A stretch of 64,000 nt of DNA from a virus. Taxonomy: Duplodnaviria; Caudoviricetes. How positions within the stretch are numbered: the stretch's first letter is position 1; each line of letters begins with the position of its first letter. The stretch is from IMG/VR virus record IMGVR_UViG_3300010885_031309, one strand, 5' to 3'. The notes beneath the pieces are model-generated. The model did no database searches, was not told the DNA's origin, and worked only from the letters and a program-made list of their open reading frames with translations. A program made the translations under genes and the position numbers. This document shows positions 40,101-53,273 of the stretch, in pieces.

Positions 40101-43100
40101 TTATATTGCGGGAGGAGCAGTCTCTGGGCCAACTGCTGGCGGTGCACCCACTGGAGCAGTAACTTCTGGAGAGATACCTGGCATCTGCTCTTGACCCTCT
40201 GGAGGAATATTTTCTGCCGTTTCGGTGTCACTTTCAATGTCACTAGTGCTTAGTCCAATACTACGCAAATCTGTGCCCTTTGCTGTTTTTTCTTCGTCTT
40301 CTGGTTTACTATGCTCTTCATGCCATAACTTCTCGTTCTTCTTTATTTCTTCTTGACTTAGGCCCAAAAATCTTTCCATTGCAAATCTAGTAGATATGTA
40401 TGGTAGCTGTGCCACTGAATTAAACACATTTACTCTGACTTGATCAATTTCACTTTGACGATACGCTGCGAAATTTTGAGGGGGGTTAAATTTTAAATCA
40501 AATAAACCAGCGTCTATATTGAATCCACGCCAGCGTAAGAATAACTTGAACTCTTCATTCAATTTGCGAGCAATGTAACCCTGCAAACGCTCACAATATT
40601 GATTGAAACGATACTCTTGTATTAGTGCAGTTCCTACTTTTCCGTCTACTAATGGTCGCTCACTATCTTCTGGACCAGTTGGTAGATAACTACTTGGTAC
40701 ACGCAATCCTCGTGCAAGTCTGTTGTTGAAGTATCTAAGATCATCTATTTCCCCTAGATTGCTATTTTTCGTAAATACGCCAACGCTCAGGGCAAAAGTA
40801 TGATAATCATGATATATTTCATCGCCGTCAATTGTCAACGTGCCAACTGAGATCTCTTCTTCTAACCACTCAAGGGCAGCTACTCGGTGATTGTGCACGC
40901 TTTCTTTCACACGAAAGTCTTTCCATGACTTATATCCAAATTGTTGCACTAGTGAACGTCTGATGTTTCCTGGAGTGAACCCTTCTTCAACCTTCCAGTT
41001 ACGAACTTGTTTATCTTTGTTCAGTTCAACTAACTTATCTCGTAGAGATGACTTGTTCAATTCAGCAGCGATATTGTCAGCAGTTACTTCATGCGTAGTT
41101 TTTCCCTTGACCATATCAATAACAAACTTCAGCATGTCATGTGTATACTCAACTCGCTGTCTATCACTGTGCTTCTTCTTGCGCTCTTTGCCGCGCTCGT
41201 CGCTCCAATTGATGTAGTTCCATTCTCTGGTTTGATATGCACGTTGTTCACGAAGTTTCTCGGTCCACCCTGCACTCTGCTGCTGACAAACCCATGCATG
41301 GTATTCTTCATCAGTGCGCATTTTTTCTAGTTTTCGTGATGAGGCAATTTTGAATGCATCACGCGAATTTTGTGCTCTAGATTCACGATCATCTTCAGAT
41401 AGAGATTCAATATATTTTTTTATCGAGGCGCTCATCTTGTCCGTTATGAGCTGGCGTTCTTCATCAGTAAGATTGCTCCAGAACTGTCTAAGACCATCGA
41501 CAAAGTTTTCTTTTTGTTCAGGTGTTGTGTTTTCCCATCGTTTTTTTTGCGCTATTGAATTATTCTTGCAAATTTTCCTATATTCATTTATATTATTTTC
41601 TTTGATAATTTGAATTCGCTGTGTGTTGTGGTCAGCGTGATACTTGATATGGTCACTGAATGACATCCAGCATAGATTTTGCGGATCATTGTTGAATCTA
41701 TTGAAGTCTTTATGATGTCTGACTTCATACAATCCATTACTGGTGGACGAATCATGAACATGATAACACACGAGGGTATCTTTTAGATAGTCAGCGACTG
41801 TTCGGTGAGTAAACTTCCACTCTTTTGCCTCATTGTCGTAATACTGTTCATATTCATTTTTGCTTTTTCCAAGATATTCTTTCTTTCTATATAGAGGAAT
41901 CATACTGTCGCCCACAACAAATTCGTCGGCGCGCTTGAATTCTTGTTCATATACTGGAAATTTATGTTCCGGTGTACAGATAATATGCTCACCGTTATCA
42001 AGAGTAATCTTTAGCACTTTCGCACGAGGCTTAGTTACGCCGGCCCATGTAATTAGTCCAGGGACTACTTTTCCAGTAAGTGGCTCACAACTGTATGTCC
42101 ATAGCTGTTTGCCAGTTTTCATTTCACTTTCAATTTCAGCAATAGATAGTTCTCTGCCATCCAATAACGAAACTCTAGTATCCATGCTAAAACATCCGCC
42201 CGGCAGTGTAGTAACATCACTACCACGACCGTCTGCTGTTACTGGAAAGAAGTAGTCCTCATTGATTGAGTTTTTAATGAAGATTCCAGAATCAATCGCA
42301 AAAGTATGATAGTTGTGCCATCTTTCGGTTCCATCAATAGTTATAGTGCCGGTATCACGATTGCTAACTCGCTCAATACTTACTACGCGATGGTTAAACT
42401 GTTCAATTGAGCTAACGAAATGTTTCCAATTTTTATATCCGAATTGTGTAATTAGACGATTAATTTTCTTTTCGCCAAATTGATTCAAATTAATTTTATT
42501 TTGCGTAGCACTATCACTCATCTCAGAGTTGTGCTGTCTTACAAGTTCAAGTAGCTTTTCATCGCTTGAACACAAATCAATAATTTTCTTTTTGTTTTTA
42601 CCGTGAGCTTTGACTTTTTCTACTACTAACTGAAGCATGTCAAATGTCATCGTGAGCTTTTGGTTATTAAACTTTACTCTGTTTTCTAAATTTTTATTAA
42701 GTTGCTGGGCAAAAGCTGGATTATTTTTAATATATTCTTTTCTGGACTTACTTGCATTTATTGAATATTTTGCTGCATGTTCTGAGTCATTATTGCGAAG
42801 CCACACTGCTTTAGTCTGCGCTGCACGAATGCGGTACAGAGCAATATGACGCTCATGCTCGGTCATTATATTCCAGTTCTGTTTTACAGTTTCTGAAATT
42901 TTACCAGTAAGCTCAGCACGATATTCTTCTGTCATGGTTTTCCAAAAATCAGATTCCTGTGCAGCGTGATACAGTATATGATCCTTCTTGTTCATGTATG
43001 TTAGATTGCGCGGATCATTATTGAATCTGTTATAATCACGGTGATGTATTACTGTTTTTTCTGCGCCAATATTTTCTGAAAGATATGTATACTCTTGATG

Positions 43101-44555
43101 TTTTTCAATCTTTCTAAAAAACTCGCCTACCATGCGATGAGTCCACACCCACTCGCGAGTTTCATGATCCCATACTTGTTGATATTCGCTTGATTTTTCA
43201 CCACTGATTTTTTCGTTTCTCACATTGAACGCTATCAGACTATCTTCTGCTGTCAAATTTTGTGCTTCAACAAATCCTTTGCCGAATACTGGAATTTTGT
43301 GATCAGGTGTGCATGTTAAAGTTTTTCCATTATCTAGTGTTACTTTGATAACTTCGGTGTTCTTGCGTGTAATACCTGCCCAGTTAATTACACCTGGTAC
43401 TACTTTACCAGTGACTGGATCACAACTATAGGTCCAGTTTTCTTTACCAGATTCAAACTCACGAATTAACTCCTGTAATTCCAGAGTTCGTCCATCCAAT
43501 AGTGGAATTCGTGTACTTAAATCCAAGCAAAGTGGATTATATGTAGCATCCATTACACTCTGTCCGCCATGAACACTTGGTATTCTTCGCTGATGAATTT
43601 CGTCTTTAATTCTATTAACGAATGCCATAGCCAAGTGACTTGGCATATTTCCAACATCTATTTTGAATATTCTGCGCTCTGGTGCCCGTTGAACACGATA
43701 TATTAGAATAGCGTCTTCTAATAATTCTTTCTGCTTATAAACTTTGAATATATTTTCAAGTATACTTTGTCCAAATGGCCAATAACGGTCAAGTCCTTCA
43801 GTCAAGCTAAGATGCACTACATGCTTAGCATCTATAGCAGCTTCGTTAATACCCAAGCTAAATCTACTGCCCGTGGTTCCATAAGGTTCGTTTGGAACAG
43901 TATAGCTGTATGGAGCACTGTACCCAGCGGTAGGTGGCTGTGCTTGAAAGTCAGTAGTAGTCTTTTCAGCAATACTTAAATTTTGTAAATTTGGATTAAT
44001 ATCTTTGATTACATACTGCTCAGGCTTCTTGCCCTCACTCTCGTTGACAATAACTTTGACGACCTTTGTCATGTCAGTCCAATACAGTTTGAAATTTTCT
44101 GGGTCACGAACAAAAACCTGATCACCGTACTTTACTGTGTTGCGAAATATCTTAAATATTCTGGTGTCCAACTCATTCAATTTACACCACTGCTGTAATT
44201 GCTTTACTACTAGTTCAACTTCAGTAGTAGTGGGATCATCATTAAACTGTATCTCAAACGGCGTATTGTTGTGTTCATTCATCTGTGTACTAAATTCAGA
44301 AAGAATGTCCAAACATGCGTTTATTTCAGGATCCACATCCATCATTTCATACTGATTGTATCGCTCTATGCGATTTGGATGTCCTGTATAGACTTCTGGC
44401 AGTCTGCTTTGATAGTTTCTAAAAGCAAAATCATTGTTCCAGCCGCCAGTTGGTTCTTTATTCATACCAGCGTTCCATGAGCCGGTATTACTGTTCATAC
44501 CGCTTATTGGACTTAGTGAACCGTGTTGATTTGTGAATTTTCGTTTATATGACAT
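40101..44555 (-). CDS. gp20: Portal vertex protein with two inteins (mature ~587 aa)
   Basis: LEDAILIYRVQRAPERRIFKIDVGNMP, EDYFFP, NLGEIDD and LRVPSSYL motifs. Confidence 0.95.
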   Translation of the reverse strand: MSYKRKFTNQHGSLSPISGMNSNTGSWNAGMNKEPTGGWNNDFAFRNYQSRLPEVYTGHPNRIERYNQYEMMDVDPEINACLDILSEFSTQMNEHNNTPFEIQFNDDPTTTEVELVVKQLQQWCKLNELDTRIFKIFRNTVKYGDQVFVRDPENFKLYWTDMTKVVKVIVNESEGKKPEQYVIKDINPNLQNLSIAEKTTTDFQAQPPTAGYSAPYSYTVPNEPYGTTGSRFSLGINEAAIDAKHVVHLSLTEGLDRYWPFGQSILENIFKVYKQKELLEDAILIYRVQRAPERRIFKIDVGNMPSHLAMAFVNRIKDEIHQRRIPSVHGGQSVMDATYNPLCLDLSTRIPLLDGRTLELQELIREFESGKENWTYSCDPVTGKVVPGVINWAGITRKNTEVIKVTLDNGKTLTCTPDHKIPVFGKGFVEAQNLTAEDSLIAFNVRNEKISGEKSSEYQQVWDHETREWVWTHRMVGEFFRKIEKHQEYTYLSENIGAEKTVIHHRDYNRFNNDPRNLTYMNKKDHILYHAAQESDFWKTMTEEYRAELTGKISETVKQNWNIMTEHERHIALYRIRAAQTKAVWLRNNDSEHAAKYSINASKSRKEYIKNNPAFAQQLNKNLENRVKFNNQKLTMTFDMLQLVVEKVKAHGKNKKKIIDLCSSDEKLLELVRQHNSEMSDSATQNKINLNQFGEKKINRLITQFGYKNWKHFVSSIEQFNHRVVSIERVSNRDTGTITIDGTERWHNYHTFAIDSGIFIKNSINEDYFFPVTADGRGSDVTTLPGGCFSMDTRVSLLDGRELSIAEIESEMKTGKQLWTYSCEPLTGKVVPGLITWAGVTKPRAKVLKITLDNGEHIICTPEHKFPVYEQEFKRADEFVVGDSMIPLYRKKEYLGKSKNEYEQYYDNEAKEWKFTHRTVADYLKDTLVCYHVHDSSTSNGLYEVRHHKDFNRFNNDPQNLCWMSFSDHIKYHADHNTQRIQIIKENNINEYRKICKNNSIAQKKRWENTTPEQKENFVDGLRQFWSNLTDEERQLITDKMSASIKKYIESLSEDDRESRAQNSRDAFKIASSRKLEKMRTDEEYHAWVCQQQSAGWTEKLREQRAYQTREWNYINWSDERGKERKKKHSDRQRVEYTHDMLKFVIDMVKGKTTHEVTADNIAAELNKSSLRDKLVELNKDKQVRNWKVEEGFTPGNIRRSLVQQFGYKSWKDFRVKESVHNHRVAALEWLEEEISVGTLTIDGDEIYHDYHTFALSVGVFTKNSNLGEIDDLRYFNNRLARGLRVPSSYLPTGPEDSERPLVDGKVGTALIQEYRFNQYCERLQGYIARKLNEEFKLFLRWRGFNIDAGLFDLKFNPPQNFAAYRQSEIDQVRVNVFNSVAQLPYISTRFAMERFLGLSQEEIKKNEKLWHEEHSKPEDEEKTAKGTDLRSIGLSTSDIESDTETAENIPPEGQEQMPGISPEVTAPVGAPPAVGPETAPPAI
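40764..42194 (-). mobile_element. Portal intein 2 (477 aa) with HNH-type endonuclease
   Basis: LPGG|CFSMDTRVSLLDG...CTPEHKF...HHKDFNRFNN...VFTKN|SNLGE. Confidence 0.92.
42270..43529 (-). mobile_element. Portal intein 1 (420 aa) with HNH-type endonuclease
   Basis: YNPL|CLDLSTRIPLLDG...CTPDHKI...HHRDYNRFNN...IFIKN|SINED. Confidence 0.92.
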
Positions 44556-44625: not shown

Positions 44626-47499
44626 TTAAGCCATGTTACTTAACATATTTCGCTGAATGTTTTTAGTAGAATTTAATATATCACTCATAGCTCTTGCATG
44701 ATCATTGTTTATTTTTGATTGAGCAATCAGTTCCAACAATTTGTTGTTAGCAGCTTCTTGTGATTGTTTGAGTTCAGATATAGAATTTTTAAATATCTCA
44801 GCTAGATTTGCTATTTCAAAATTGTCTAAATTTTTTACTGAAGACATGTACTGTTGATTACGAATCTCAACTGGCATAGAGTCGGCGAATGCTGGAAGAT
44901 AATTATTTTTAATTTCAACTGGAATTGTTTTGTCATCCAATGTCACTCGTTGCTGCTGTGATTGATTGCGTATTTCAACTGGAATTGTTTTGTCATCCAA
45001 TGTCACTCGTTGCTGCTGTGATTGATTGCGTATTTCAACTGGAATAACTTCTGTTGAAAATTTCTGAATTAATTCGCTAATGTCAGATGATATTGACTTA
45101 ATATCAGCAAAATTGTTGTAATCATTGATTACATTAACTCTCATAGGATCAGAGAATTGTGGTAACGATTTATTCTGTATTTCAACTGGAATTGTTTTTC
45201 CATCCAATGTTAAAGTTCTAGCTTGATTACGAATTTCAACTGGTATTGTTCTACCATCTGGTAGCGGAACAACTGCTTCTGGTCCTGCTTCGCCGGCTAT
45301 TGATATACCGCGTGTAACTCCGCCGGCGGCCATTAACTCAGCGTGAAAATGCGGGCCGGTACCATGTTTCTGTCTATGATAAGCATCTTTTACGTCATTA
45401 AATCCAATACTTTTTAAGTATGCAACTATTCTATCGGAGTCCTCTGCCGTTGCTGGTCCTGGGTCCATAGTAAAGTCAACTGCTTTTCCAAGTTTGTGTT
45501 TACTAGTTTCAGTCTTGTTTTCTGGGTCCCAATGATATAGATCATTAAAAGCAGCAATAGTAGTACCAGGGAACTCCTTGGAGAATTTTTTCATCAATTC
45601 AATAACTTTGTCTTCGTTTGCAATTGCTTCTTTTTGTTGTTCTGCTGGGACTTTCTTAATTCCACCAACAGATTCCGCACTTTTAATTCTTAATCCACTG
45701 TATTTTTTGTCTAGTCCGGTTGTCCCAGATCCTAAATTCTGGTTTTGTCCAACTCCTGTTTTTTTCGTGTCTTCAAGTCTTATTTTTGCTGTTTCCTCGT
45801 CTGCTGTTTTTCTAGCTTCTGCGACTTTATCTTTTTTTCCTTCATGTTGTTTTCGCAATTCTACTAAAGATTTTTCACTTGAAATTATTTGATTTTGAAG
45901 ATCTTGAATTCTTCTTTCTCGTATATTTTTATCTGTTTTTGTCTCATCTGCTGGGGGGACATAAGTGTCCAGTTTGTGTTTTTCTTTTTTAAGTTTGTCT
46001 ACTTCTTTTTCTTGATCTATCAACGTTGACCTTGCCTTACGCTCATCATCAAGTACTTCATTTAATTTCAATCTTGCTTTAACATCAGCCGGAATTTCTT
46101 TGCCAGCGAGTTCATATAATTTTTCGGTAAGAAAATCAACTCCACTTGCCATCTTACTAATAGCCCAAGTAGCAGTATCGCTAGCTGTCCATAATTTTTC
46201 TAAAGTCACTCCAGTATTGTATAGTGACTGTTTTGCTTTTGCCAACTCTGCATTTTGGCCCTCAGTTTCCTTTAAGTTTTTTCGTTGCTCATCAGATAAT
46301 TTTTTAACTTCTTCTGGAGTTAATTCAGCACGATTAGCATAATTTCTGTTTTGTGCGAATGATTTAGTGTAAAGTGCTGCATCACCGATATATTGACCCA
46401 ATTGTCCCATTGGTCCAATAGTTTGTTTTAACGAAGCTCGTAATCGTCTATCAGCTTCAAATTGATCTATCGCTCCCGCTCTAAATTGAGCGATAATATC
46501 ACCAGCTACTCCCCCTGTTTGTTGAACTAATTGTTTGGCGGCATCAGTAGTAACCGATCCACTCATCATGTCTCTAAAACCCTGAGCTAAGTCTGGAGCA
46601 CTCTTTTGAATAATGATATTCAAATCATTAGCTGATTTTTGAACTGATTCTGGTAATTGTGCTAGCGCAGCAGCAAATCGCGTCTCACTCATAGCAGCAT
46701 CACGCTGAGCTTGAATATCTTTTCTATTCAAACCTGTTATCTTACTTAATTGATCCAACTCTTGGATATAAATTTTTGTACCATCTGCCAAGTCTTTTGT
46801 TTGTTTACCCTGTCTTAATCCCCAATTAGTTTGTTGAGAGATATAAGTCAACTGCATATCATTAAAATCTGCAACACCGATTCCCAATTTCTGGAAATCT
46901 TGTCTCATTAATCTACTCTCTGACGAGATTTGTTCAAATTCTTTTCTACCGGCTACGGCAGATCCGCCAAAATTACTTAATTCTTTACTGAATTTTGTTA
47001 GTGTCTTGGCACTATCACCATAATTCATTCCAGTTCGTTCTAAGATTTCATTTAAATCTAAAAACGACTGTACTGTTCCAACTTCAGATAGTTGCTCAAA
47101 AATCGTGTAAGCGCGGTCAAAATTCTTGGTTAATTCTTTTGCAACTTCCCCGCCAGCTTCTAGAAATCCCTTGGCAATGCCAGAAAAAGGCCCAAGTATT
47201 CCGGCAAGCGATGATAATCCCTTTACAGTAAGATCTATGACACCGTTTAGTGCAGTAAATGATCCTCCTCCCTGCTGAAACTGATTACTCAGTGACAGTA
47301 AATTATTCGCAACACGTTGAATAGCTGCGGCTTGTTTTTCGTATGACTCTTTTCTCTTCTTATCTAGCTTCTCTGATTCACCAACAGAAGACTCAACTGC
47401 ATTTTGAACCAAACCGCCAGTAGTGCGAGCAGCCGCACCTAGAGCTTGTAAACCGCGTATCGCTTCTTCAATAGAGTCTGGATCAAAATTAGTAGTCAT
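44626..47499 (-). CDS. Tape-measure-like protein with an M15-type peptidase domain
   Basis: Long helical Ala/Gly-rich body; SKHKLGKAVDF and GPHFHAE motifs; AGEAGPEAVVPL. Confidence 0.7.
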   Translation of the reverse strand: MTTNFDPDSIEEAIRGLQALGAAARTTGGLVQNAVESSVGESEKLDKKRKESYEKQAAAIQRVANNLLSLSNQFQQGGGSFTALNGVIDLTVKGLSSLAGILGPFSGIAKGFLEAGGEVAKELTKNFDRAYTIFEQLSEVGTVQSFLDLNEILERTGMNYGDSAKTLTKFSKELSNFGGSAVAGRKEFEQISSESRLMRQDFQKLGIGVADFNDMQLTYISQQTNWGLRQGKQTKDLADGTKIYIQELDQLSKITGLNRKDIQAQRDAAMSETRFAAALAQLPESVQKSANDLNIIIQKSAPDLAQGFRDMMSGSVTTDAAKQLVQQTGGVAGDIIAQFRAGAIDQFEADRRLRASLKQTIGPMGQLGQYIGDAALYTKSFAQNRNYANRAELTPEEVKKLSDEQRKNLKETEGQNAELAKAKQSLYNTGVTLEKLWTASDTATWAISKMASGVDFLTEKLYELAGKEIPADVKARLKLNEVLDDERKARSTLIDQEKEVDKLKKEKHKLDTYVPPADETKTDKNIRERRIQDLQNQIISSEKSLVELRKQHEGKKDKVAEARKTADEETAKIRLEDTKKTGVGQNQNLGSGTTGLDKKYSGLRIKSAESVGGIKKVPAEQQKEAIANEDKVIELMKKFSKEFPGTTIAAFNDLYHWDPENKTETSKHKLGKAVDFTMDPGPATAEDSDRIVAYLKSIGFNDVKDAYHRQKHGTGPHFHAELMAAGGVTRGISIAGEAGPEAVVPLPDGRTIPVEIRNQARTLTLDGKTIPVEIQNKSLPQFSDPMRVNVINDYNNFADIKSISSDISELIQKFSTEVIPVEIRNQSQQQRVTLDDKTIPVEIRNQSQQQRVTLDDKTIPVEIKNNYLPAFADSMPVEIRNQQYMSSVKNLDNFEIANLAEIFKNSISELKQSQEAANNKLLELIAQSKINNDHARAMSDILNSTKNIQRNMLSNMA
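44912..45045 (-). repeat. Exact 60-bp tandem duplication within a PVEI repeat region
   Basis: Units start at 44912, 44972 and 45032 (partial). Confidence 0.95.
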
Positions 47500-47560: not shown

Positions 47561-48385
47561 ATGACCAACAATCCACTACAGCAATATTTTCGCAGACCAG
47601 CAATTTATATTAAGCTTCCGAGTCAAAACAAATATTATGATCAAAGCGTCATTGAACCAACTCAAACAGGAGAATTACCAGTCTATCCAATGACTGCACT
47701 GGATGAAATAACCAGTAAGACTCCAGACGCAGTGTTTAACGGACACGCAGTAGTAGATATTATTCATAGCTGCATGCCAAATATTAAAAACGCATGGGAG
47801 ATCAACAGTGTTGATCTGGACGCTATTCTTATTGCAATCAAAGTAGCCAGCACTGGTGAAAAAATGGAGATTGGAACGGTCTGTCCAAATTGCAGCACTG
47901 ATGCAACATACGATATCAGTCTAATTCAAGTGTTAAGTCAACAGCAGAATGTTGACTATGAAAAAACATTAAAAATCAGAGAATTGGAAATTAAGTTCAA
48001 ACCACTTTCATTTGCAGAAGCAAACAAAAACAATCTGGCACAGTTTGAATTACAAAAATTCCTACGAGACAGTCAATCTTATGAAGATAGTCCTGAAAAG
48101 GAACAAACAATACGCGATACTATCACCAAGTTGAATTCTCTTTTTTCAGAGATTATTAGTGGAACTGTAGAGTACATTAAAACTCCAGAATCTACTGTAC
48201 ACGAGAGAGAATTTATTAATGAGTTTATGAATAACTGTGATAGAAATACCAACTTAGCGATTCGCGAATTCAGTGTTCAATTGCGAAACGAAAATCAATT
48301 GAAACCACTGAATATAAAATGCATGCATTGCTCACATGAGTACACACAGCAATTAATATTGAATATCACTGATTTTTTCGCTTAA
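47561..48385 (+). CDS. gp26: gp26-like baseplate hub assembly protein / tail assembly chaperone
   Basis: NPLQQYFRRPAIYIKLPS, VYPMTALDEI, C..C and CMHC motifs; ends DFFA*. Confidence 0.7.
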   Translation: MTNNPLQQYFRRPAIYIKLPSQNKYYDQSVIEPTQTGELPVYPMTALDEITSKTPDAVFNGHAVVDIIHSCMPNIKNAWEINSVDLDAILIAIKVASTGEKMEIGTVCPNCSTDATYDISLIQVLSQQQNVDYEKTLKIRELEIKFKPLSFAEANKNNLAQFELQKFLRDSQSYEDSPEKEQTIRDTITKLNSLFSEIISGTVEYIKTPESTVHEREFINEFMNNCDRNTNLAIREFSVQLRNENQLKPLNIKCMHCSHEYTQQLILNITDFFA

Positions 48386-48422
48386 AGCTTCTATCATTGG
48401 ATCATGCCGAAATGAAGAAGCT
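48373..48422 (+). promoter_or_regulatory. Putative programmed -1 ribosomal frameshift signal
   Basis: Slippery T TTT TTC at 48373-48379, 6-nt spacer, hairpin AGCTTCT-A-TCATT / AATGA-AGAAGCT at 48386-48422. Confidence 0.7.
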
Positions 48423-48609
48423 GGGCGAAGTCATGTGGCATGAAGCACTTGGCATCAAGGCTCAAGCAATTAAAATGGCTTGGTATACCCGAGGTAGCAT
48501 GCAATATGTAGATGTACTTAATTTGAGCAAAGACGAATTGGATCAGCTAAGTAAATTAGTTGATTCCAATATGGAAACTACTAAGAAGACCAAATTACCA
48601 TTCTTCTAA
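48373..48609 (+). CDS. -1-frame ORF (gp51-like), probably made as a frameshift fusion to the gp26-like protein
   Basis: The frame opens exactly at the T_TTT_TTC site; no clear SD before its own starts. Confidence 0.65.
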   Translation, partial: FFRLKLLSLDHAEMKKLGEVMWHEALGIKAQAIKMAWYTRGSMQYVDVLNLSKDELDQLSKLVDSNMETTKKTKLPFF

Positions 48610-48633
48610 TTTAGAATGGGCTGCAGCCCATTC

Positions 48634-48670
48634 GCCAGCAGCCTATCGGCGTGCTGGCTTTTTTCTTTTT
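48634..48670 (+). terminator. Rho-independent terminator
   Basis: GCCAGCA-GCC-TATC-GGC-G-TGCTGGC-TTTTTT. Confidence 0.8.
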
Positions 48671-48698
48671 GTAATCTCTCTCTGTTATATATTAATTA

Positions 48699-48886
48699 GA
48701 TGTATTTCCGTGATTTATGACAGCCATATATGTGATGCGTATTTCAGTGAGATATCTTAGTGACATATTAGTGATGTCTTAGTTATATCTCTCAATAATG
48801 CGTGTGTGATGTATTTCAGTTATGTCTTAGTGATTCATATGAATTAGTAGTCTGATATCTGTACAGATGTATTTCAGTGATATCAG
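48699..48886. repeat. Iteron-like repeats GATGTATTTCAGTGA (4 copies) with TCTTAGT(G/T)A units
   Basis: Copies at 48699, 48734, 48808 and 48866 in non-coding AT-rich DNA. Confidence 0.75.
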
Positions 48887-49009
48887 TAAAAACTAAATTA
48901 GTTGAAAAGAAGTCTGTTTGTGTCAGTCGGAGAGCGCAGCGAGAAGAACTGACACAAACATGGCTGTTGAGCAAAGCGAGACAGCCAACTGACTGTAATT
49001 ATTTGATAA

Positions 49010-49559: not shown

Positions 49560-50075
49560 TCATTCTTTCTTTTCTGAAATGTATTTAAGTCTGTTTTTAT
49601 TGCTGGCAAAAAAAATATCCATGTCGCTTATTATCCATGCGTTGTAGTTTGGGCTAGTATAAACAGTATGATTTTTTAGATCCCAATCGTATTTTTTTTC
49701 TACTGCAATGAATTTTCCAACACGAGTTATTTTCATAAACAAACAATTGACACTGTTATCATCACCACTAGTTACTAGTTGATTTAGCCAGATCTCAAGT
49801 TGTTTGCACTCATTACTTAAAAGTAAATTAAAAGGAAACTTGGAATAAGACTTGCATTCACAATTAAGAAGATTGAAGCTTTCTGGTACAATAATGTCGC
49901 CTCTTGTATGACGAATTTGTTCCGCTGTCAGTGAAGATTTGCGACTAATATTTTTACCTCCAACATAAGAGCCACTACCACTTAAATTTCTTATAAATGA
50001 TTCATTGTATGTATTGGAAAGATACTTTGCTACTTCTCTTTCCCAACTTGACCCTTTTGTTTTTTGCTTGCTCAT
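49560..50075 (-). CDS. Hjc-like PD-(D/E)XK nuclease (putative Holliday junction resolvase)
   Basis: KGSSWEREVAKYL...GDII...CECKSY. Confidence 0.7.
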   Translation of the reverse strand: MSKQKTKGSSWEREVAKYLSNTYNESFIRNLSGSGSYVGGKNISRKSSLTAEQIRHTRGDIIVPESFNLLNCECKSYSKFPFNLLLSNECKQLEIWLNQLVTSGDDNSVNCLFMKITRVGKFIAVEKKYDWDLKNHTVYTSPNYNAWIISDMDIFFASNKNRLKYISEKKE

Positions 50076-50114: not shown

Positions 50115-53100
50115 CTATTCTTCCAATTCCTTCAAACTTGTAAACCCATTTTCCTTTACTACTTTTACTGTGTTATTAACTCTGTTGGTCAACTCATCGC
50201 GATGACTTACTAGCCATACCGATTTGTTTCTATTTCTGCTAAAGTCTTTCAGTAGTGCAAGACCGTTCTCAATGCCCACGGTGTCCATGCCCGAGTCCAT
50301 TAGTTCATCAATAAACATTACATTAACTGATTGATAAAGATTTTCCCACACATCGCGAAATGCAAATGACAGTCCTAAAATAACTCTAGTGCGTTCACCT
50401 CTGCTAAGTGAGTCAAAATCTAGCTCTCGTCCAAGTTCTGTAATTTCAACACTTAAATCATTTTGAAATACCACGCGATGTGGTAATCCTATGCGATCCA
50501 AGTAATGCGACAGTCTGTTATTCAAATATGACAAATTCTGTTCAATGATTTTTTTGCGAACAAATGACTTTTTGTTAGTTAATAGATCCAACAAATAGTC
50601 TTGGTGTTGTAGTAATCGGGTCAGTCTGTTGATCTCACTAAAGTCAACTGTTTGTATAGCATTAGTTTGCATTTCTGCGATTTGTTCAGCATACGGATCT
50701 TCTTCACTGTGTTTCTTTTGTATTTGATCCAATAGTGTTTGTACGCGACTGCTGTGCTTAAATGCCGCCTCTTCAGTGTCATAGTGTGTTTTTGGCTGCG
50801 GACCCAATACTAGAGTGCTGTTCTCTAACAGTTGCTCAGCATATGGGTCAGTTTCGCTTAGCTTGTCTTCTATTTGCTTGCTGATACGATCTACTTCACT
50901 ACTGTGCTTAATAGCTTCAGCGTGTGTGTTGTAGTGTGTAGTGGGCTTATTGCCAACAATCACTTCGCTATTTACTAGCTTGTTCCATAATTCATGTGCT
51001 GCGGCATAGCCTTCATTTGTCTCTACTAGAAGTTTTCGTTTCTTCTCTAATACCTCGGTGTGCTTACTATCGTGAAACTCTTGTCCACACGCATAGCAAC
51101 GATGCTGTTCTAGCTCATGTACTTCTTCTTGTAGCTTTTGTGCTGACTTAGCTAGCTTTTCGCCGTCGCTCTTTGCTCGTTGTAATTCTTTAGCCCAGAT
51201 TTCACGCTCAGATACTTTTGTATTGTGAATTGCTAGTTCAGAGTGTGCTGATAATTCGGCAGCAATATCAATTTTGGTAAGCTTAGTCAAGCTACTCTGT
51301 AGAGCGGCCACTTCTTTGTCTAGCTTTTGTCTCCATGCAGTCTGTCTAGCCAAAACGGCATCATAGCGATCAAGCTTTTCTTTGTTAGAGTTCCATACGG
51401 CCAAATCTTTGTGTGCCGCTAATTCGGCGCCAATATCCACAAGTTGCAATTGGTCGTATTCTGTTACTAACTTAAGCAAGTCTTCGTCTCGCTTGGCAAT
51501 CCATAGACGCTGACGCTTCTTTAGACTGTCAATCTGTTCAGTAATACGCTTGTTTGCCGCCTCAACTCCATTTACACGAAACTCTTCTCGCTGAATGTCT
51601 TCTTTTGTAGTCTTGTTTAGTTCTTTGATAGCATCTGCTTTTTCGCTTAGCAGAGTGATTCCAAGTAGTTGTTCAATGATCGTGCGTTGATCACTGACAC
51701 GCATACTTAGAAACGGTGTAGTGTAGCTATTGAGACCAACAATATGTTGAAACATATCACTGGACATACCCAGAATACGCTCAATTGCTTGTTGAGTTTC
51801 TTTGTTTTCACCCTGTGCGTCATTGTCATCACTTGATTGTTGTTTGTTATTGACATAGAACTTTAGCACATTTGGTTTACGACCACGAACAATCTGATAA
51901 TCATTATCATTAACAGTGAATTCAACAACGGCATGCATTTGTTTGCCATTTGTTCTATTAATCAAATTGTCTTTCTTAATTTGATTAATAGGGCTACCGA
52001 ATAGTGCATAGCTTAGACCCTGCAATATAGTGGTATTGTGAGTTACTACATAATTATCAGTGACATATAAATGATCTTTGTGATCTATAGCAATACATTG
52101 ACATTCGGAGTTGTCAATTTTTTGAATATCAGATATTTGTAGACGAAGTTGATCAGCATATTGATAATCTGCGCTTATCCTGTCAAGTTTTCTTGACAAC
52201 GAAAATAATTTTTTTGGATTATGATAGCGAATTAAAACTATATATGCTTTTTTACCTTCTTTTTTCTCATTCAAATAAGTAAAGCGTGGTATTTTTTCTC
52301 TTATTCTGGCAATTCCACCGATACTACGAATTAAGTCGGTTACATCCATGGCAAGTTGCTTGCTACTAGAAGAAAAAGATATAGATCCGGTTCTGTCAAC
52401 GGTGCCGTCTGTATCTAATAATCCACGAAGCAATTCTAATTTTTGAGAAACGCTAATATTTTTGTAAATTTCTGGTATAAATTTTTCTTCGCTGTTTACA
52501 TTTAATTTTAAATCAATAAGACGCGACCTTAATGGGTGAGTAATTTTTTTGGGATTATTTTTTCTGTGATTCATCACAACTCTATATGAAATTTTAGGAC
52601 GAGTTGTTGACTGTGATTGTCTCAATGAGCAATCAATTAATTGTAGTTCATCGTTTACTCGTGTGAGTATTTCTTGATCCACAGATGTTATACCAACAGA
52701 TGATTTTAAATGTCCGTCTCCGAGTAACGCTCCCAAAGTATAACAAGAAATAGGAACAGATACATTCTCTGTATCTCTAGGAGTATACAGAGGGACATAC
52801 AAAAAGTTAAACGCCTTTTTCTTTTGAGAATTTACATTTAGTAGTTCAATCAGTTCAAGTGTTGTCAGAATTCTTGTATGATTGATATCTGTTTTATTGC
52901 GAAACAGATGACTGTATACATTCCATAAATGATCTTCGCTTGCCTCACATGTACGACCGTCTCTGAATGTAAATTTGTAAACGGATTTAATTCCTTGTGG
53001 ATATACTCCAATCACTTTGGCTAATGAGCCATCATGAGCAATAACGCTATCTCCAACACTGATATCTCGCATAAGAGTCCATCCGTGAGGAGTTAATATA

Positions 53101-53273
53101 TTACTAGTTAGTGGTTGTGCTTTGCCAGTACCATTCCTTGAGCCATCACCGCCCAAATCTAAGTTTTCGCCTAGAATCAGTGTAAGATCCTTGCGATCAA
53201 AATTTATTTCCTGTTCTACATTTCCAATGCTTAGAAAATTTTTAAGTCGCAGTGTTTTTAGTTTTATACTCAT
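50115..53273 (-). CDS. gp46: Recombination endonuclease ATPase subunit (SbcC/Rad50-like) with an intein
   Basis: NFLSIGN, NGTGK|TT, LSRGE, FIDELMD and VSHR motifs. Confidence 0.93.
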   Translation of the reverse strand: MSIKLKTLRLKNFLSIGNVEQEINFDRKDLTLILGENLDLGGDGSRNGTGKAQPLTSNILTPHGWTLMRDISVGDSVIAHDGSLAKVIGVYPQGIKSVYKFTFRDGRTCEASEDHLWNVYSHLFRNKTDINHTRILTTLELIELLNVNSQKKKAFNFLYVPLYTPRDTENVSVPISCYTLGALLGDGHLKSSVGITSVDQEILTRVNDELQLIDCSLRQSQSTTRPKISYRVVMNHRKNNPKKITHPLRSRLIDLKLNVNSEEKFIPEIYKNISVSQKLELLRGLLDTDGTVDRTGSISFSSSSKQLAMDVTDLIRSIGGIARIREKIPRFTYLNEKKEGKKAYIVLIRYHNPKKLFSLSRKLDRISADYQYADQLRLQISDIQKIDNSECQCIAIDHKDHLYVTDNYVVTHNTTILQGLSYALFGSPINQIKKDNLINRTNGKQMHAVVEFTVNDNDYQIVRGRKPNVLKFYVNNKQQSSDDNDAQGENKETQQAIERILGMSSDMFQHIVGLNSYTTPFLSMRVSDQRTIIEQLLGITLLSEKADAIKELNKTTKEDIQREEFRVNGVEAANKRITEQIDSLKKRQRLWIAKRDEDLLKLVTEYDQLQLVDIGAELAAHKDLAVWNSNKEKLDRYDAVLARQTAWRQKLDKEVAALQSSLTKLTKIDIAAELSAHSELAIHNTKVSEREIWAKELQRAKSDGEKLAKSAQKLQEEVHELEQHRCYACGQEFHDSKHTEVLEKKRKLLVETNEGYAAAHELWNKLVNSEVIVGNKPTTHYNTHAEAIKHSSEVDRISKQIEDKLSETDPYAEQLLENSTLVLGPQPKTHYDTEEAAFKHSSRVQTLLDQIQKKHSEEDPYAEQIAEMQTNAIQTVDFSEINRLTRLLQHQDYLLDLLTNKKSFVRKKIIEQNLSYLNNRLSHYLDRIGLPHRVVFQNDLSVEITELGRELDFDSLSRGERTRVILGLSFAFRDVWENLYQSVNVMFIDELMDSGMDTVGIENGLALLKDFSRNRNKSVWLVSHRDELTNRVNNTVKVVKENGFTSLKELEE
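52035..53120 (-). mobile_element. Ala1 class-3 (WCT) LAGLIDADG intein (362 aa) in the gp46 Walker A motif
   Basis: GTGK|AQPLTS...EDHLW...LGALLGDG...RGLLDTDG...CQCIAID...VTHN|T. Confidence 0.92.

Follow-up and report, generated by a model that had tools for sequence, protein, structure and literature searches.

Comparative evidence for a conserved -1 frameshift cassette in the gp26/gp51-family baseplate hub assembly gene of jumbo myophages

The window analyzed here is a stretch of 64,000 nucleotides (nt) from a virus of the Caudoviricetes (IMG/VR record IMGVR_UViG_3300010885_031309), and its plus strand carries at 47561..48385 an open reading frame (ORF) of 274 amino acids (aa), which we assigned to the family of the phage T4 baseplate hub assembly proteins gp26 and gp51. 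The 3′ end of this gene, hereafter called the hub gene, together with the sequence that follows it, very likely forms a conserved cassette for -1 programmed ribosomal frameshifting, by which one gene would yield a short and a C-terminally extended protein. The 274-aa protein matched Pfam family PF12322 (T4_baseplate) with an E-value of 9.6e-17 and 61.8 bits, compared to a curated cut-off of 24.5 bits, and PHROGs family phrog_150, ‘baseplate hub’; T4 gp26 and gp51 themselves scored 215.6 and 177.5 bits with the PF12322 model. Best fold matches of its predicted structure in BFVD were T4-like baseplate hub assembly proteins (E 5e-23, template modelling (TM) scores 0.71/0.86), and the top Atlas structure cluster was the T4 family of baseplate hub assembly chaperones (TM 0.71/0.93). 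Two cysteine pairs are present, at residues 108/111 and 254/257. A search of the phage collection for DNA nearly identical to the window found none. Isolate relatives, with 28-34% identity, were jumbo myophages, among them Phosso, Atu_ph07, PA5oct, RaK2/K64-1, GAP32, XacN1, XaC1, an Asteriusvirus and an Eneladusvirus, and the gene order of portal gene, large virion structural protein and divergent hub gene was kept across the relatives. The phages with the frameshifting gene are jumbo myophages carrying T4-like core genes.

The hub gene ends with GAT TTT TTC GCT TAA, in which the slippery heptamer T_TTT_TTC occupies positions 48373..48379 (+), in X_XXY_YYZ phase at an offset of 812 nt from the ATG and one codon ahead of the zero-frame stop. 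A 6-nt spacer, the zero-frame GCT TAA, follows at 48380..48385 (+), and a predicted stimulatory hairpin starts right behind it at 48386..48422 (+), where a 68-nt fold reached -22.5 kcal/mol (z -2.55). The -1 frame has a TGA at 48370-72 and is open exactly from the slip site, where its reading begins FFRLKLLSLDHAEMKK, up to the TAA at 48607-09. The -1 extension (48379..48609, +) thus counts 76 codons plus TAA, and the predicted slip product, made of 273 zero-frame codons and 76 -1 codons, would have 349 aa with the junction ITDFF/RLK. No Shine-Dalgarno (SD) motif was found in the window ahead of TTG 48397 or ATG 48412, the possible starts of a separate downstream ORF. An initial annotation of the window, made by reading its sequence, had described this in-phase heptamer, the -1 frame opening at the slip site, products of 274 and about 349 aa, the hairpin 6 nt past the heptamer and the downstream ORF without a clear SD motif, and each of these elements was confirmed. 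TTTTTTC occurs 49 times in the window, which has 38% G+C, so the heptamer alone is not special, and the observation in a single sequence needed comparative support.

Such support was found in the relatives of the hub gene. A scan of IMG/VR gave 80 loci with 35-47% identity, and a representative set was composed of 55 relatives below 70% aa identity. All IMG/VR loci with the gene end on the contig had an in-phase TTTTTTC located 9, 15 or 18 nt upstream of the zero-frame stop, and the -1 frame of these metagenomic loci was open for 70-75 codons past that stop. The in-phase TTTTTTC and the -1 ORF, which measures 73-86 aa overall in isolates, were likewise present in PA5oct, RaK2, GAP32, XaC1, ph0011 and Serratia phage BF, while XacN1 has T_TTT_TTT; the cassette was also conserved in Atu_ph07 and the Asteriusvirus, and additional loci from a later search had a cassette of the same type. 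When the 3′ ends of the gp26-like genes were aligned across relatives, as the initial annotation had suggested, NNT TTT TT(C/T) was in phase in all 55 representatives (54 TTTTTTC and 1 TTTTTTT) and the open -1 frame was conserved. Codon usage in these genes predicts a frequency of 0.059 per lineage, with TTC making up only 21% of the Phe codons elsewhere in them, and by this measure conservation of the heptamer across lineages far exceeds chance. The residue ahead of the two Phe codons is variable (N, D, T, S, H, V, R or A), yet the third base of its codon was T in every representative. The zero-frame tail past the heptamer is variable as well (1, 3, 4, 6 or 10 codons), and the -1 reading FFRxRLL is constant.

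Genes that have no trailing -1 ORF are not bound to TTT TTC. T4 gp26 and the paralogue at locus L095 have TTC TTT at this point, and L097 has TTT ATG; further T4 gp26 orthologues were sought as a control, and that search returned only near-identical T4 relatives. At locus L094 (1270-1295) a tandem short paralogue keeps AAT TTT TTC in phase with a -1 frame that is shut after two codons, perhaps the remnant of an earlier slip site. Sequencing error or a pseudogene was also considered as a source of the broken reading frame and was ruled out, given that more than 80 independent contigs and 9 isolate genomes share this arrangement.

Predicted RNA structure past the heptamer was compared with that of control windows within the same genes. 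For the 80 nt past the heptamer in the 55 representatives, the mean minimum free energy (MFE) was -22.3 kcal/mol vs. -9.4 kcal/mol in the controls (Wilcoxon p = 1.9e-10), and the mean z was -3.5 vs. 0.0 (p = 2.5e-10). The first stem of at least 5 bp begins 4-8 nt past the heptamer in 46 of the 55, and in the majority of relatives a 13-bp stem forms between the 5′ arm and a distal 3′ arm some 60 nt away. This stem also showed covariation, with 57 double-change cells compared to 27.5 in shuffles, and none of 500 shuffles was as high. These features bear on the possibility that RNA polymerase, rather than the ribosome, slips on the T6 run and adds one U to some mRNAs, from which the long form would be translated directly. 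The protein outcome would be nearly identical, and the T run is invariant, even extended to T7 in one relative, as polymerase slippage would also have it. However, the strict X_XXY_YYZ phase suits ribosomal slippage, the conserved stem 4-8 nt downstream stands at the spacing of a ribosomal stimulator, and six T are a short run for efficient slippage by bacterial RNA polymerase. We consider transcriptional slippage improbable.

The -1 frame encodes a conserved peptide of about 75 aa with the pattern FFRxRLL..EI..W(Y/F)MRG..ETTKK.G.PFF, and its consensus, FFRxRLLxLxxxEI...CWYMRG...DREII..IIKENLETTKKTGLPFF, has a mean column identity of 60%. A profile of this peptide matched 512 cluster representatives among 1.84 billion proteins, most of them short ORFs whose N-termini were called inconsistently. 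When the extension or the fused protein was scanned with hidden Markov models (HMMs) from PHROGs and from a Pfam copy without PF28602, no family for the extension emerged, and the matches of the Atlas structure search did not reach it. An AlphaFold2 model of the fused window protein, whose sequence carried one extra X at the break, was confident throughout, with a predicted local distance difference test value of 94.9 and a predicted TM score of 0.91; it places three helices in the extension, at 283-312, 317-321 and 325-345.

Could this peptide be the product of an independent small gene that starts at TTG 48397 or ATG 48412, with the heptamer as a by-product of a C-terminal Phe-Phe? Database records would seem to say so, for the downstream part is listed as a separate hypothetical protein in Phosso, Atu_ph07, XacN1, GAP32, XaC1, ph0011 and BF, and none of the 9 isolate records inspected has a joined coding sequence, the downstream part being either such a separate protein or unannotated. 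The Phe-Phe ending is, moreover, kept in short forms that do not frameshift. Against a separate gene, the conserved FFRxRLL..EI lies ahead of any start codon in most relatives, and the position of the first ATG in the -1 ORF ranges between codons 3 and 38 in most representatives, without a conserved start. In L006, L007 and L009 an in-frame ATG is found 15-18 codons upstream, which is possible only through overlap with the 3′ end of the gene. The -1 ORF of PA5oct (L083 3822-4058, 78 codons), unannotated in its RefSeq record, lacks ATG, GTG and TTG altogether. A by-product of Phe-Phe would also not account for a preceding codon that ends in T whatever residue it encodes, and the lack of an SD motif in the window and the natural in-frame fusions described below likewise speak against a gene of its own. 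An independent gene is thus highly improbable, and the -1 peptide, judged by its conservation, is real coding sequence without its own start.

Natural counterparts of the predicted fusion were found among the profile matches. Of the best 150 of the 512, 20 were proteins of 319-351 aa with the C-terminal extension and a gp26-like N-terminal part in a single ORF, so that related phages do possess the fused architecture as an ordinary protein. Their junction, xFRxK(I/L)(L/I), aligns without gaps to DFF/RLKLL of the predicted slip product, as does the extension itself. These single-ORF long forms (P0118, P0121, P0129; L094, L095, L097, L105, L113) share the N-terminal domain and the extension with the window gene, and their loci share its synteny, with an intein-bearing portal, the large structural protein and divergent hub genes. 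They differ in that no frameshift is involved, the junction lying in one frame, and in that the short protein comes from a separate Cys-less paralogue. All long forms with visible context (5/5) adjoin such a short paralogue; it stands in tandem with the in-frame long form at L094, L095, L097, L105 and L113 and ends NFF plus 2-4 residues. At L106 and L107 the tandem paralogue is combined with a frameshifting gene. A database search with a single tandem paralogue as the query gave no match, and an alignment of three as the query succeeded.

By count, T4 has two PF12322 genes, and Phosso, Atu_ph07, PA5oct and RaK2 have one each. In a tree of the N-terminal domain, from which redundant loci and gp51 homologues beyond five representatives were left out, T4 gp26 and gp51 were sisters, the in-frame long forms made up a basal grade of the jumbo clade with the frameshifting genes nested within it, and the tandem paralogue was monophyletic. 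The tree has only a midpoint root, at which long branches meet, and so does not establish the order of events.

Behind the -1 ORF, two abutting hairpins occupy 48614..48672 (+), the second followed by a T-run (-31.9 kcal/mol, z -5.17). They likely constitute the intrinsic terminator of the hub-gene transcription unit; being bulged, the structure was missed by the terminator scan and revealed by folding. PA5oct, RaK2 and GAP32 likewise have a hairpin and T-run, read by eye, past the stop of the -1 ORF. A 20-bp palindrome noted in 48614-48672 corresponds to the first of the two hairpins.

Taken together, a conserved -1 programmed ribosomal frameshift in the hub gene is very likely, and the claim, made in the initial annotation, of a canonical cassette joining the gp26-like gene with the ORF behind it has gained strong comparative support. 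Most ribosomes would read T_TTT_TTC normally and stop two codons on, releasing the 274-aa short form. A fraction would pause at the stem 6 nt downstream of the heptamer, where two tRNA-Phe could slip back by one base (UUU to UUU and UUC to UUU), and the slipped ribosomes would continue for 76 -1 codons to complete a long form of 349 aa, which has a C-terminal extension of three helices. One mRNA, ending at the terminator right after the -1 ORF, would thereby supply two N-coterminal isoforms at a fixed ratio. Both isoforms may act on the hub and on the neighboring tape-measure-like protein.

T4 itself provides the closest comparison for such a pair. Its gp26 and gp51 are listed as hub assembly chaperones, of which gp51 is reported to be absent from virions and is described as essential and still unexplained in function (Leiman et al. 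2010, PMC3004832). PF12322 spans the whole N-terminal 200 residues of both gp26 (E 9e-64) and gp51 (E 4e-52), and by these matches the two are paralogues of one family, to which the window protein also belongs by HMM and predicted fold. gp51 has a C-terminal surplus of about 48 residues over gp26, which newer Pfam releases define as Gp51_C, PF28602. In T4, likewise, a short protein ends in FF plus a few residues and a long protein runs past that point, and the models of gp51 and of the window extension have an identical order of secondary structure, namely a long helix, a 5-residue helix and a terminal helix. The extensions differ in length, about 76 aa in the window gene and about 48 aa in gp51. 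The genes differ more: T4 has two separate, divergent genes, and gp26 ends KEFFELL with FF encoded as TTC TTT, so that gene 26 has no heptamer and T4 proper lacks such a frameshift. On the tree, the T4 pair resembles a duplication of its own, as far as the uncertain root allows. The initial annotation had taken the downstream ORF for a gp51-like gene paired with the gp26-like one; this was not borne out; in T4 the gene behind gene 26 is gene 25, and gene 51 is oriented divergently. A better reading is that one gene yields, by the predicted frameshift, a gp26-like short isoform and a long isoform with the architecture of gp51. That the two forms are functionally equivalent to T4 gp26 and gp51 is plausible, and we rate it slightly better than an even chance.

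Alignment of full-length profiles of the window family and gp51 by hhalign gave a probability of 58% (E 1e-4), collinear to both C-termini, compared to 20% in an earlier run, and a BLASTP comparison between the fused protein and T4 gp51 was not significant. Several points weigh against the frameshift or against equating its long product with gp51. When the extension alone was aligned with Gp51_C, hhalign scored 20.8, and the maximum of 30 shuffles was 19.6; PF28602 is also unrecorded on the natural long forms, and homology of the extension to Gp51_C is only suggestive. Short forms made without frameshifting (T4 gp26 and the tandem paralogues) also conserve Phe-Phe as protein, so an amino-acid constraint could explain part of the TTT/TTC conservation. 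In the window and a few other loci the hairpin uses a nearer 3′ partner than the majority stem does, with the 5′ arm in the same position. Finally, slippage and the fusion protein are themselves predictions from the sequence.

Two features of T4 gene 26 were noted in passing. T4 annotates an in-frame internal product, 26′ (L087 2803-3090), which corresponds to the C-terminal 95 aa of gp26, and by that annotation T4 also makes nested isoforms of the gp26/gp51 family, via internal initiation. In addition, gene 25 begins at the final base of the stop codon that closes gene 26.

For lambda-, P2- and Mu-type phages it is textbook knowledge that tail chaperone genes undergo ribosomal frameshifting, and the arrangement predicted for the hub gene resembles lambda G/GT, P2 E/E+E′ and Mu gp41/42 in having an X_XXY_YYZ slip to the -1 frame a few codons ahead of where the short ORF stops. 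As in lambda G/GT, two N-coterminal products are predicted, and the gene lies next to one for a tape-measure or, here, tape-measure-like protein. The initial annotation had called the immediate divergent neighbor of the hub gene tape-measure-like, and this held. The neighbor (44626..47499, -) encodes a protein of 957 aa, which reached 0.91 to TP901-family tape measure clusters in an Atlas feature search and whose RaK2 orthologue is annotated as similar to tape measure protein; Pfam and PHROGs scans of it gave no match. An M15-type peptidase region is embedded in it, with structural matches at about residues 594-756. Virions of PA5oct were found by mass spectrometry (MS) to contain the orthologue, and the PA5oct record carries an electrospray ionization tandem MS note on this structural neighbor and none on the hub gene, a weak hint that the hub protein may be absent from virions.

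The likeness extends to function insofar as members of the hub-gene family are assembly factors in T4, whose target, and by analogy perhaps that of the hub gene, is hub assembly (PMC3004832). Whether the hub protein might be a true homologue of the lambda G/GT chaperones masked by divergence was weighed against its sequence, fold and placement. The shared expression layout, the position beside the tape-measure-like gene and the listing of T4 gp26 and gp51 as hub assembly chaperones in the same source would fit homology. Nevertheless, Pfam and PHROGs searches matched the gp26/gp51 family only and no tail assembly chaperone, a Foldseek search of the PDB had no match with an E-value of 0.001 or less, and VIA-align, also run on the PDB, gave generic helical hairpins only (Z about 7) and no chaperone. 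The comparison of predicted structures with tail assembly chaperones that the initial annotation had suggested thus yielded no similarity in these PDB fold searches. G-type chaperones are helical proteins of about 100-140 aa, and the hub protein, with 274 aa and two Cys pairs, is much larger and unrelated in sequence and fold. G and GT genes also lie between tube and tape-measure genes on the same strand; the hub gene and the tape-measure-like gene diverge, their start codons separated by 61 nt, and a terminator and unrelated genes lie downstream of the hub gene. Homology to G/GT is highly improbable. Because G/GT-like logic is accompanied by no similarity in sequence or fold and by a different placement, we filed the hub gene outside the G/GT family: it works like G/GT in expression logic and is not a family member. 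Of the ‘hidden G/GT system’ put forward in the initial annotation, the expression layout of a short and a C-terminally extended product stands, and homology of sequence or fold does not.

A more general reading is that T4-type contractile tails generally depend on one hub chaperone in two isoforms, a short and a C-terminally extended one, provided by three gene solutions, as a functional counterpart of lambda G/GT. We offer it tentatively and lean towards doubting it. If true, T4 gp26/gp51 would be a two-gene solution, the tandem paralogues another and the -1 frameshift a one-gene solution; the common domain would hold the tape measure or the hub, and the extension would recruit a second partner. 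This would give a concrete role to the long-unexplained ‘catalytic’ gp51. Frameshifting, gene duplication and in-frame fusion appear to be interchangeable routes to a short/long protein pair. The cassette also offers a testable reason for T4 having two paralogous hub assembly genes.

To our knowledge, frameshifting has been considered absent from T4-type tails. A full-text literature search found no report of it in the gp26/gp51 family or in these jumbo phages, and the PA5oct omics paper does not mention a frameshift. The remark in the initial annotation that such a system is undescribed for T4-like phages therefore stands as far as this search goes. The cassette is very probably a deeply conserved and previously unannotated element in the gp26/gp51 family of many jumbo myophages, well-studied isolates included. 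Since isolate records annotate the downstream part separately or omit it, many genome annotations need correcting.

Several further features of the region were observed. Within the 957-aa neighbor, an H..D...HxH-like motif lies at residues ~680-730, and several near-identical repeats of the TIPVEIRNQ type lie at residues ~760-880, past the M15-type region. The portal gene (gp20 family; 40101-44555, -) encodes 1484 aa, a length due to inserted intein splicing domains and an HNH endonuclease domain, and a related contig also carries an intein-bearing portal. An SbcC/gp46-like recombination nuclease gene (50115-53273, -) is interrupted by a Hint + LAGLIDADG intein-like insert and adjoins a PDDEXK/RusA-like resolvase gene at 49560-50075. 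The AT-rich intergenic sequence at 48700-48890 contains several copies of a GTATTTCAGTGA-like unit.

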